Shown: positions 40,847 to 42,007 of the stretch, piece by piece
Position numbering within the stretch: position 1 is the stretch's first letter
Layout of the letters: each line of letters opens with the position of its first letter
Sequence record: PQ511151.1
Reading direction: 5' to 3' (one strand)
Source: Escherichia phage NHEP36
DNA: 64,000 bases
Program-made: the position numbers and the translations under genes
The notes under the pieces: model-generated
Databases searched by the model: none
Told to the model about the DNA's origin: nothing
What the model saw: the letters and a program-made list of their open reading frames with translations, nothing else

Positions 40847-42007
40847 ATGAATACTTTTAAAATTGGAACGAATTTTGATTTAGCTCTTCTTGATAAAATC
40901 GTAGAGCTCAATAAAACTTATCCTAATAGCTTGATAAACGAAGTATATGGCTCTACAAGAGAAATGGCTTTTGTAGCAGCCAGACCTGATTTTAGGCTTC
41001 CTGACGTTGACAAAAAGATGTTAGAAGATTACGTTAAACGTTGTAACGAATTAGGTATTTGCTTTAACTATACACTCAACACGATAAATCCTGGTTCAAA
41101 AAGAGAATTAGTTGAGTGGAAGAAGAAAGCTATTCAGGATTATGTTCAGTATCTTTGGTCAATAGGCGTATGGCGTATTACTATCGCTAACCCTGTTGTT
41201 ATGGAAATTGTTCGTGAAGTCAATAAAGACATTGAGATTGAAGTTTCAACAATTCTACATGTCGATGCTGTAACTCAAATCAAATACTTGCATGACCAGT
41301 ATAATATCAAAAAGGTCTGCTGTGGAATTCATAAGAACCGTTCAGTTTCTTTCCTGAAGCGTGCAGCAGAGTTTTGCAATAAGAACAATATAATATTTGA
41401 AGTTCTTGTAAATGAGTTCTGTTCTAATGCTGGTAAAGGGTATACAACACATTGTAGCTATCGTGACTCTTGCTATATTTTCCATAGTACCGATGTTACA
41501 GCTGATGATGCTAAATCCTTAAATGGATATCCTATGCAGCACTGTATTAAAGCTCGTGATACAGATCCATTTAACTGGTTGAGAACTCGTTTTGTTCGTC
41601 CACAAGATTTGAAACTTTATAATGATATTGGTATCACTCAATTCAAAGTTTCAGGACGTACAGGTAGCACCGACTACATTTTGAAAGTTCTTGAAGCATA
41701 CGCTTCTGAAAAGTTTGAAGGTAATTTGTTAGAACTGTGGAAGCCTTTAGAGACCATTTTCACTCTTGAAAATGAGACCGAGTTTTCACATACGGTAAAT
41801 ATTGAAACCTCTTTGTTAGACGGCTTTTTAGAAAAAAGGTGGTTCAGACATCCAGATTTCGATTGTGCTAATGAAATCTGCGGGACGACGTGTACATATT
41901 GTGAAAGATATTATAAACGTCAGTTATCTAAAAATGGGTTATCAGAAAATTCTATATCTATTATTGATATAACTAACTCTGACGACGCTTTGAGGTACCC
42001 AGAATGA
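40847..42007 (+). CDS. hypothetical Cys-rich protein (candidate modification enzyme)
   Basis: Internal Met 6 of ORF 40832..42007; cysteine clusters CSNAGKGYTTHCSYRDSC and CANEICGTTCTYC; no fold recognised. Confidence 0.55.
   Translation: MNTFKIGTNFDLALLDKIVELNKTYPNSLINEVYGSTREMAFVAARPDFRLPDVDKKMLEDYVKRCNELGICFNYTLNTINPGSKRELVEWKKKAIQDYVQYLWSIGVWRITIANPVVMEIVREVNKDIEIEVSTILHVDAVTQIKYLHDQYNIKKVCCGIHKNRSVSFLKRAAEFCNKNNIIFEVLVNEFCSNAGKGYTTHCSYRDSCYIFHSTDVTADDAKSLNGYPMQHCIKARDTDPFNWLRTRFVRPQDLKLYNDIGITQFKVSGRTGSTDYILKVLEAYASEKFEGNLLELWKPLETIFTLENETEFSHTVNIETSLLDGFLEKRWFRHPDFDCANEICGTTCTYCERYYKRQLSKNGLSENSISIIDITNSDDALRYPE

Follow-up and report, generated by a model that had tools for sequence, protein, structure and literature searches.

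Within a 64,000-nucleotide stretch of DNA from Escherichia phage NHEP36 (sequence record PQ511151.1; "the window" means this whole stretch), we analyzed a gene at 40847..42007 on the plus strand that encodes a protein of the U32 family. By synteny with the RB69 record, it is the orthologue of RB69p050 (NP_861740.1). A preliminary description of the window had placed a 391-amino-acid protein here. The open reading frame (ORF) does end at 42007, but translation from the ATG at 40847 gives 386 amino acids, and a protein of 391 amino acids needs an alternative in-frame GTG at 40832. The ATG appears to be the preferred start, because it has a weak GAG about 10 nucleotides upstream and because the PHROG profile begins at this codon. 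The gene is real and constrained. We found 268 homologues of the protein in a large protein database, and most of those listed carry the Pfam domain PF01136. The ratio of nonsynonymous to synonymous changes (dN/dS) versus relatives is 0.013-0.065, which is strong purifying selection. Relative to Shewanella phage Thanatos, the U32 protein is 82% identical, versus 72% for the adjacent hydroxylase of the thymidylate synthase (TS) type.

NHEP36 is an RB69-like, T4-type phage (Mosigvirus), and the U32 gene lies in a 6.7-kb island that shares 97.6% identity with RB69 and 98.4% with vB_EcoM_TU01. The earlier placement of the gene inside a DNA-modification island was right. The gene order begins with gp43 DNA polymerase and ends with uvsX, and the genes in between are all on the plus strand. 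Upstream of the U32 gene are an SIS-domain arabinose-5-phosphate isomerase (37902..38537; RB69p055 orthologue, identified with Pfam and PHROG), an AfhE-like bifunctional nucleotidyltransferase/kinase for the synthesis of uridine diphosphate (UDP)-arabinose (38719..40404; RB69p052:53, 561 amino acids), and an AfhF-like, HAD-like sugar phosphatase (40389..40790; RB69p051, PHROG). Downstream are an ORF of 76 amino acids (42004..42234; RB69p049), the TS homologue (42276..42992; RB69p048 orthologue), putative DNA arabinosyltransferase 1 (42992..43891; RB69p046:47, 299 amino acids), and a thymidylate-kinase-like nucleotide kinase (43893..44441; RB69p045, PHROG). Except for the 76-residue ORF, the roles of these flanking genes follow PMC13326640. 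The RB69 reference record splits two of the genes (RB69p052/053 and RB69p046/047). Each is one intact ORF in NHEP36, which fits the published view that the splits in RB69 are sequencing errors.

The chemistry of this island has been described for RB69. Lee and colleagues (NAR 2026, PMC13326640) reported that the modified base in RB69 DNA is arabinosylated 5-hydroxycytosine, not hydroxymethylcytosine. The TS homologue, gp48, is a 5-hydroxy-dCMP (5hodCMP) synthase: it binds flavin (flavin mononucleotide, FMN), makes 5-hydroxy-deoxycytidine monophosphate (5-hydroxy-dCMP), and takes up 18O from O2. Furthermore, gp48 and a deoxynucleoside monophosphate (dNMP) kinase alone give 5-hydroxydeoxycytidine in E. 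coli (PMC13326640). The neighboring gene that the preliminary description had called a hydroxymethylase is therefore the orthologue of a flavin- and O2-dependent dCMP 5-hydroxylase, and because gp48 was shown to have this activity, the island makes arabinosyl-5-hydroxycytosine rather than a hydroxymethylcytosine derivative. Table 1 of the same paper lists the RB69 dCTPase, and it is the only place where RB69p050 appears: the entry is "sugar or heterocycle reductase," from fold matches to 5D88, and the protein is absent from the text. The discussion names hydroxylation by RlhA and TrhP as unrelated routes, with no tie to gp50. The U32 gene is not mentioned in the papers on Thanatos, RB69 (2018), the Durham collection, and phage Tn-seq, and full-text literature searches gave nothing relevant that links U32 and chorismate mutase in phages, or prephenate and phage hydroxycytosine.

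The preliminary description had recognized no family and had called the fold unknown, but the protein does belong to a family. Its match to Pfam PF01136 (Peptidase_U32) spans residues 99-291 (numbered in the 391-amino-acid form) at 42.2 bits (E = 7.5e-11), above the gathering score of 22.4, the PHROG 5757 profile covers its full length, and homologues are already labeled "peptidase U32," "peptidase" (in RB69), "collagenase-like protease," or "U32 family peptidase." An AlphaFold2 model built from 109 sequences (mean predicted local distance difference test score 93.9; predicted template modeling score 0.92) has the TIM-barrel-like fold of the only solved U32 member, 5D88. Profile-profile comparison with the E. 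coli proteins TrhP, RlhA, UbiU, and UbiV using hhalign gave a probability of 97.6% (E = 1.6e-11). The protein is thus a divergent member of the U32 TIM-barrel family. The search for remote homologues found a family, yet not an unrelated housekeeping one, which would have spoken against the role in modification suggested earlier: characterized members hydroxylate C5 of pyrimidines in RNA. There is no Pfam domain in the protein beyond the U32 core, and neither the DUF3656 domain nor the architecture of about 650 amino acids of the RlhA subfamily is present. The best match among NCBIfam models, to the UbiU equivalog NF047963, is weak (18.5 bits versus a cutoff of 440). Because of these scores, the lack of DUF3656, and the different spacing of its cysteines, the protein is not an orthologue of any of the E. 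coli U32 paralogues. Neither the single protein nor the family profile had a real match when searched against PDB sequences, and a match to BIM1 was spurious.

The two cysteine clusters that were noticed initially are both present with exactly the spacings given (residue numbers here are for the 386-amino-acid form). The first is C192-x10-C203-x5-C209, and the second, at the C terminus, is C340-x4-C345-x3-C349-x2-C352. Among the best 120 of the 268 homologues, which extend down to about 48% identity, nine cysteines are invariant (C158, C192, C203, C209, C233, C340, C345, C349, and C352), and a tenth, C177, is conserved in 98%. Conservation of both clusters is far beyond chance. The hhalign alignments pair E185/C203/C209 with E162/C170/C177 of TrhP and with E161/C169/C176 of RlhA, with a spacing of C-x5-C in the phage protein, not C-x6-C. 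They also pair G270-R271-T272 with the EGRT motif of TrhP. In the gene, the core U32 motif with the proposed first metal site (E185, C192, C203, C209, and C233, from hhalign and invariance) lies at 41399..41545 (+). The K267-x-x-G270-R271-T272 motif ("FKVSGRTGS"), which is the counterpart of "KIEGRTKS" in TrhP and RlhA, lies at 41645..41662 (+), and the C-terminal cluster C340-C352, a proposed second metal or Fe-S site, lies at 41864..41902 (+). E185/C203/C209 and G270-R271-T272 are invariant or nearly so in 109-120 homologues. In a more distant tier of homologues at 27-30% identity, C192, C203, and C233 are kept and C209 is replaced by histidine; C340, C349, and C352 are kept and C345 is absent. 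The earlier suggestion of a metal- or Fe-S-type signature is consistent with this pattern, and most likely the protein has two conserved cysteine-ligated metal sites that hold Fe-S clusters.

Two more specific readings of the cysteines were tried and not kept. C345-x3-C349-x2-C352 has the form CxxxCxxC, which is reminiscent of radical S-adenosylmethionine (SAM) enzymes, but there is no match to the Radical_SAM family in Pfam, the motif is in the last 50 residues and outside the barrel, and C345 is missing in the 27-30% tier. Also, we dropped the assignment of C233 and C192 to specific ligands of UbiU, UbiV, or TrhP: all four invariant cysteines (C192, C203, C209, and C233) are present, but the pairwise alignments to U32 relatives are weak at the distal ligands.

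Genetic evidence ties the characterized U32 proteins to hydroxylation that needs prephenate and no O2. RlhA (YdcP) was assigned genetically to the formation of 5-hydroxycytidine at C2501 of E. coli 23S rRNA (PMC5727448). TrhP (YegQ) makes 5-hydroxyuridine (ho5U) at position 34 of tRNA and is redundant with the O2-dependent TrhO (PMC6599085). UbiU and UbiV replace flavin mono-oxygenases in ubiquinone synthesis under anoxia (PMC10990095). RlhA, TrhP, and UbiU/V need prephenate, the product of chorismate mutase, as the oxygen donor (PMC10990095, PMC6599085, PMC5727448). Mutations in the Glu/Cys/Cys and EGRT motifs make TrhP and RlhA nonfunctional (PMC6599085, PMC5727448), and RlhA also needs a separate C-terminal group of cysteines, of which C580 and C611 are essential (PMC5727448).

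Genes for prephenate supply are found next to the U32 gene in relatives. (We refer to the loci of relatives by number, such as L041.) In phages Entb_45 and LC53, the U32 gene is directly followed by a true CM_2 chorismate mutase (40.9 and 44.6 bits; gathering score 27). A tblastn search placed this chorismate mutase in 51 phage genomes, whose hosts span about 12 genera. Throughout the matches listed, it is at the locus of the U32 gene and the TS homologue, and an HMM search adds Proteus phages to the carriers. In seven distant loci (L041, L043, L044, L045, L055, L063, and L066), either a fusion of 3-deoxy-D-arabino-heptulosonate 7-phosphate (DAHP) synthase to chorismate mutase or a stand-alone chorismate mutase is beside the U32 gene, with all of the domains above Pfam's gathering thresholds. 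Because chorismate mutase or fusion genes adjoin U32 genes both in T4-like relatives and in these distant loci, the link between this U32 subfamily and genes that supply prephenate extends over three gene architectures and no fewer than two unrelated genome backgrounds.

The fusions (DAHP_synth_1 plus CM_2) are 340-372 amino acids long and adjoin U32 in contigs from viruses and metagenome-assembled genomes (MAGs) of anaerobic lineages, at L041 8411-9433, L044 7302-8357, L045 8332-9387, L055 11079-12197, and L066 6931-7959. They would amount to shikimate-pathway auxiliary metabolism in phages.

In NHEP36, the 76-residue ORF fills part of the slot that holds chorismate mutase in relatives. It overlaps the stop codon of the U32 gene by 4 nucleotides (ATGA), which suggests translational coupling. 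It is kept in Mosigviruses, in Yersinia phages phiR1-RT and fHe-Yen9-01, and in Pectobacterium phage PM2; in these last three phages it is side by side with a chorismate mutase. Its N-terminal "INHxLNEE" motif is similar to the extension at the N terminus of the chorismate mutase of the LC53 type. However, it is not itself a chorismate mutase, as it has no Pfam match even at E <= 10 and hhalign gives a probability of 0.1% against an alignment of phage chorismate mutases.

The phyletic pattern of the U32 gene may relate to how the hosts use oxygen. The gene is present in 221 phage genomes, always with at least 80% identity, and the hosts are all facultative anaerobes: Escherichia, Shigella, Klebsiella, Serratia, Proteus, Yersinia, Enterobacter, Providencia, Edwardsiella, Pectobacterium, Erwinia, Kosakonia, Morganella, and Shewanella. 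We found the TS-type hydroxylase in 345 phage genomes; 57 of these are from phages of Acinetobacter, which is a strict aerobe, and the Acinetobacter phages lack U32. For example, Acinetobacter phage DLP3 has the arabinosylation cluster without U32 or chorismate mutase. The nearest relatives outside the Straboviridae are on contigs that were binned to or isolated from Oscillospiraceae, Lachnospiraceae, Romboutsia, Phocaeicola, and similar lineages, and these are mostly strict anaerobes.

Among the Straboviridae, 15 of 15 loci carry both U32 and the TS homologue. For the distant relatives, we considered 33 viral contigs (40-55% identity; many are 130-294 kb) together with 13 loci from genomes or MAGs (44-52% identity); the seven distant loci with prephenate-supply genes are among them. 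The viral loci often encode sugar activation and transfer: 16 have an AfhE-like sugar activator, 15 have an arabinosyltransferase homologue, and nine have an arabinose-5-phosphate isomerase. Just one of the 33 has a TS homologue, which is a weak match (E = 9e-6), and there was none within 8 kb on either side in 25 genome loci. Because these distant loci combine a glycosyltransferase that needs a hydroxylated base and a U32 gene, with no TS-type hydroxylase nearby, the pattern suggests a non-orthologous replacement of the TS-type hydroxylase by U32.

Other distant relatives are near genes of nucleotide metabolism. In L002 and L012, a dCMP deaminase gene is directly upstream of the U32 gene, along with Tmk, uracil-DNA glycosylase (UDG), and DnaE. 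L003 has NT5C, a deoxynucleoside kinase (dNK), and a nucleoside deoxyribosyltransferase near U32, and L014 has dUTPase/DCD, a TAGT-like glycosyltransferase, and UDP-galactopyranose mutase. These contexts point to a mononucleotide substrate for the subfamily.

The window also encodes the anaerobic ribonucleotide reductase NrdD (21247-23064, +; NRDD, 565 bits) and its radical-SAM activase NrdG (23061-23531, +; Fer4_12, 165 bits), so the phage is equipped for anaerobic nucleotide metabolism. NrdD and NrdG are a second enzyme pair in the window that is dedicated to anoxic nucleotide metabolism. Because they are present, we view NHEP36 as a phage built for O2-free replication, a condition in which gp48 is inactive. 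T4-type phages clear dCTP from the nucleotide pool, and therefore an anoxic infection would otherwise presumably lack a cytosine nucleotide.

Given these observations, we propose with moderate confidence that the U32 protein is an anaerobic, prephenate-dependent dCMP 5-hydroxylase. One Fe-S cluster would be held by C192/C203/C209/C233 and a second by the four C-terminal cysteines. dCMP would be oxidized at C5-C6, and decarboxylation of prephenate would deliver hydroxide to give 5-hydroxy-dCMP and phenylpyruvate, with the clusters relaying two electrons; the prephenate-decarboxylation scheme is that proposed for UbiU/V (PMC10990095). The product would then be used by the phage's dNMP kinase and DNA polymerase, and arabinosyltransferases would decorate the base in DNA. 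Mosigviruses would obtain prephenate from the host's PheA/TyrA; many relatives carry a chorismate mutase of their own. The U32 protein would be an anoxic backup for the O2- and flavin-dependent gp48, so that DNA with arabinosyl-5-hydroxycytosine could still be made, for instance in E. coli in the gut. A pair of aerobic and anaerobic hydroxylases would parallel the phage's two ribonucleotide reductases, one aerobic and the other anaerobic. The preliminary description had offered a transferase, mutase, or redox enzyme; a redox enzyme is close to what we consider the best explanation, and a transferase or mutase found no support.

Several observations weigh against this proposal. There is no chorismate mutase gene anywhere in the 64-kb window, and the Mosigviruses all lack it, so the strongest linkage to chorismate mutase comes from relatives. 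L011 has only a gene of the DAHP_synth_1 family, which could be a 3-deoxy-D-manno-octulosonate 8-phosphate (KDO8P) synthase, and L029 likewise has the DAHP_synth_1 part alone. The Dhakaviruses, which infect E. coli, have the arabinosylation cluster without U32 or chorismate mutase; therefore, host anaerobiosis is not a strict predictor and the U32 module is accessory. The absence of the TS homologue at distant loci refers to flanks of 8-10 kb on either side. The cysteine spacing of C-x10-C-x5-C-x23-C differs from the canonical C-x6-C-x15-C-x3-C, even the best NCBIfam match falls far short of its cutoff, and the RNA-binding-type domains at the C termini of RlhA and TrhP have no counterpart in the protein. 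More broadly, direct hydroxylation in vitro is yet to be demonstrated for any U32 protein (PMC10990095). Finally, the frequent co-location with sugar-activation genes would also fit a role directed at sugars.

The Dhakaviruses are natural "U32-minus" comparators. In Escherichia phage VR5 (L010, 4415-8589), the arabinosylation/5-hydroxycytosine cluster has no U32, chorismate mutase, or obvious SIS isomerase, and a thymidylate-kinase-like gene is in the slot instead. These phages rule out a simple rule that U32 is in every phage of a facultative anaerobe.

The co-location with sugar genes leads to the alternative that survives best, although we consider it unlikely: a redox enzyme of the sugar pathway (a "sugar or heterocycle reductase") that acts on arabinose-5-phosphate, UDP-arabinose, or a related sugar before transfer. 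This is the sole published label that we found for RB69p050 (Table 1 of PMC13326640). The gene lies between the sugar phosphatase and the base hydroxylase, the distant U32 loci share AfhE-like, SIS, and glycosyltransferase genes, and in L011 the U32 gene is adjoined by an epimerase and the DAHP_synth_1/KdsA-family gene. However, DLP3 makes arabinosyl-5-hydroxycytosine with the same isomerase, kinase/nucleotidyltransferase, phosphatase, and glycosyltransferase and no U32. Several U32 contexts have no sugar genes, such as those with dCMP deaminase, Tmk, and UDG, or those with a nucleoside monophosphate (NMP)-kinase-methyltransferase, NT5C, and dNK. No characterized U32 member acts on sugars, and a sugar reductase would leave the linkage to chorismate mutase unexplained.

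In all 15 of the Straboviridae loci, the U32 gene is adjacent to and in the same orientation as the FMN-dependent hydroxylase, and the conserved cysteine clusters would suit electron transfer, so the protein might instead be a partner that supplies reduced FMN to the TS-type enzyme. We think that this is quite unlikely. In 32 of the 33 distant viral loci, as in each of the 25 genome loci, U32 is found with no TS homologue nearby, and chorismate mutase is linked to U32 at loci that lack the TS homologue. Conversely, Acinetobacter phages and Dhakaviruses run the hydroxylase without U32, and, as mentioned above, gp48 needs only a dNMP kinase to yield 5-hydroxydeoxycytidine in E. coli.

T4-like phages encode tRNAs, the characterized U32 enzymes that are directed at nucleic acids use RNA, and the core motif is conserved, so one could imagine an RNA hydroxylase like TrhP or RlhA that forms ho5U or 5-hydroxycytidine (ho5C) in host or phage tRNA or rRNA and tunes translation during infection. 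This seems very unlikely, since the C-terminal domains of RlhA (DUF3656) and TrhP are absent, with no Pfam match outside the U32 core, the U32 gene is always within cassettes for DNA modification or deoxynucleotide metabolism, and E. coli already has TrhP and RlhA. As for a true collagenase-like peptidase, which the family name and the database labels imply and which some reports of collagenolytic U32 proteins would favor (PMC5727448), we give it hardly any credence, because no proteolytic catalytic mechanism is known in the family (PMC5727448), every functionally dissected member is tied to hydroxylation, and both the genomic context and the ten invariant cysteines speak for redox chemistry on nucleotides.

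If the dCMP 5-hydroxylase proposal is extended to the relatives, the U32 subfamily would be a widespread and unrecognized class of O2-independent, prephenate-driven deoxynucleotide hydroxylases. Phages of strict anaerobes would depend on it alone for the 5-hydroxypyrimidines of hypermodified DNA (in glycosylated forms, and possibly in 5-methoxy forms made via fusions of an NMP kinase and a methyltransferase), chorismate mutase and even DAHP synthase would have been captured to feed it, and RB69-like gut phages would have two hydroxylases for one DNA base, an aerobic one and an anaerobic one. We advance this joint claim tentatively and rate it somewhat below an even chance.

Some loci hint at what else the distant relatives may do. 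In L014 (5777-14179, viral), the U32 gene overlaps the downstream DNA glycosyltransferase (the TAGT-like match is weak), and there is no TS homologue; the flanks also include a Gly_transf_sug protein and a Tmk-like kinase. This may be a cassette for modification of DNA with galactofuranosyl-5-hydroxypyrimidine. Another recurring arrangement is a triad that comprises a guanylate-kinase/SAM-methyltransferase fusion of 414-450 amino acids, a protein of about 270 amino acids with no Pfam match, and U32. It is found in L064, L070-L075 (about 5800-9100), and L003 (5912-9098), on contigs attributed to anaerobes, among them the isolate Phocaeicola faecalis (L074), and it is often near NT5C, dNK, and a nucleoside deoxyribosyltransferase. 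By analogy to TrhP and TrmR, which form 5-methoxyuridine (mo5U), the triad could be a route to 5-methoxy-pyrimidine deoxynucleotides. In strictly anaerobic Firmicutes, for example Ruminiclostridium papyrosolvens, U32 genes of the 27-30% identity tier are inside clusters for nonribosomal peptide synthetases and polyketide synthases (NRPS/PKS; L078 5253-13499 and L082 3369-12855). They are next to condensation/adenylation modules and a B12-radical SAM enzyme, in some cases along with another U32 gene, and these U32 proteins may be O2-independent tailoring hydroxylases of natural products. Radical SAM/SPASM genes are a few genes away from U32 in two unrelated metagenomic contexts (L002 1-250 and L003 12160-13185), and L003 also has a second and very divergent U32 paralogue at 13227-14360.

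If our proposal is correct, then the new part is the substrate class (deoxycytidylate) for a known kind of enzyme: this would be the first prephenate-type U32 hydroxylase that acts on a DNA precursor and the first O2-independent route to a hypermodified phage base. It would account for how gut coliphages with an O2-requiring hydroxylase replicate fully modified DNA in the anoxic intestine, and for the presence of chorismate mutase or DAHP synthase genes in T4-like and in unrelated jumbo phages. Differences in phage DNA modification that depend on O2 would alter sensitivity to restriction, CRISPR, and type IV systems, which bears on phage therapy in anaerobic niches. Furthermore, a small, soluble, single-chain U32 enzyme with a simple nucleotide as its substrate could open a prephenate-dependent chemistry that has not been reconstituted to study in vitro.

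Comparison with known systems shows how the phage protein would differ from each of them. The solved U32 protein, Mk0906 from Methanopyrus kandleri (PDB 5D88), has 247 residues and no known function and is 11-14% identical to the phage protein, which has extra C-terminal helices and a Cys-rich tail. RlhA is similar in its Pfam family, in its E/C/C motif (E161/C169/C176), in having a second, C-terminal group of cysteines, and in that its product results from hydroxylation at C5 of cytosine. However, RlhA has 653 amino acids and DUF3656, binds 50S precursors, and modifies a single rRNA residue, whereas the phage protein has 386 amino acids, consisting of the U32 core and a short Cys-rich tail with a different cysteine spacing, and its proposed substrate is a free deoxynucleotide. 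The C-terminal cysteine groups of the two proteins are parallel in layout. UbiU and UbiV each bind a [4Fe-4S] cluster by four cysteines, but they work as a heterodimer, together with the accessory factor UbiT, and their substrate is an aromatic ring bound to a lipid; the phage protein consists of one chain, which may hold two clusters. The gp48/HY126 homologue would share the substrate and product (dCMP to 5-hydroxy-dCMP), as well as the cluster and the pathway, and would differ in fold, cofactor, and oxygen source: a TS fold versus a TIM barrel, flavin versus Fe-S, and O2 versus prephenate, where the U32 side is what we propose. The logic would be that of TrhP and TrhO, in which a prephenate-dependent U32 enzyme that needs no O2 and an unrelated O2-dependent hydroxylase make one product. 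TrhP acts on U34 of tRNA and has its own C-terminal domain, and TrhO is in the rhodanese family and is not a TS homologue; in the phage, the O2-dependent partner would be gp48.

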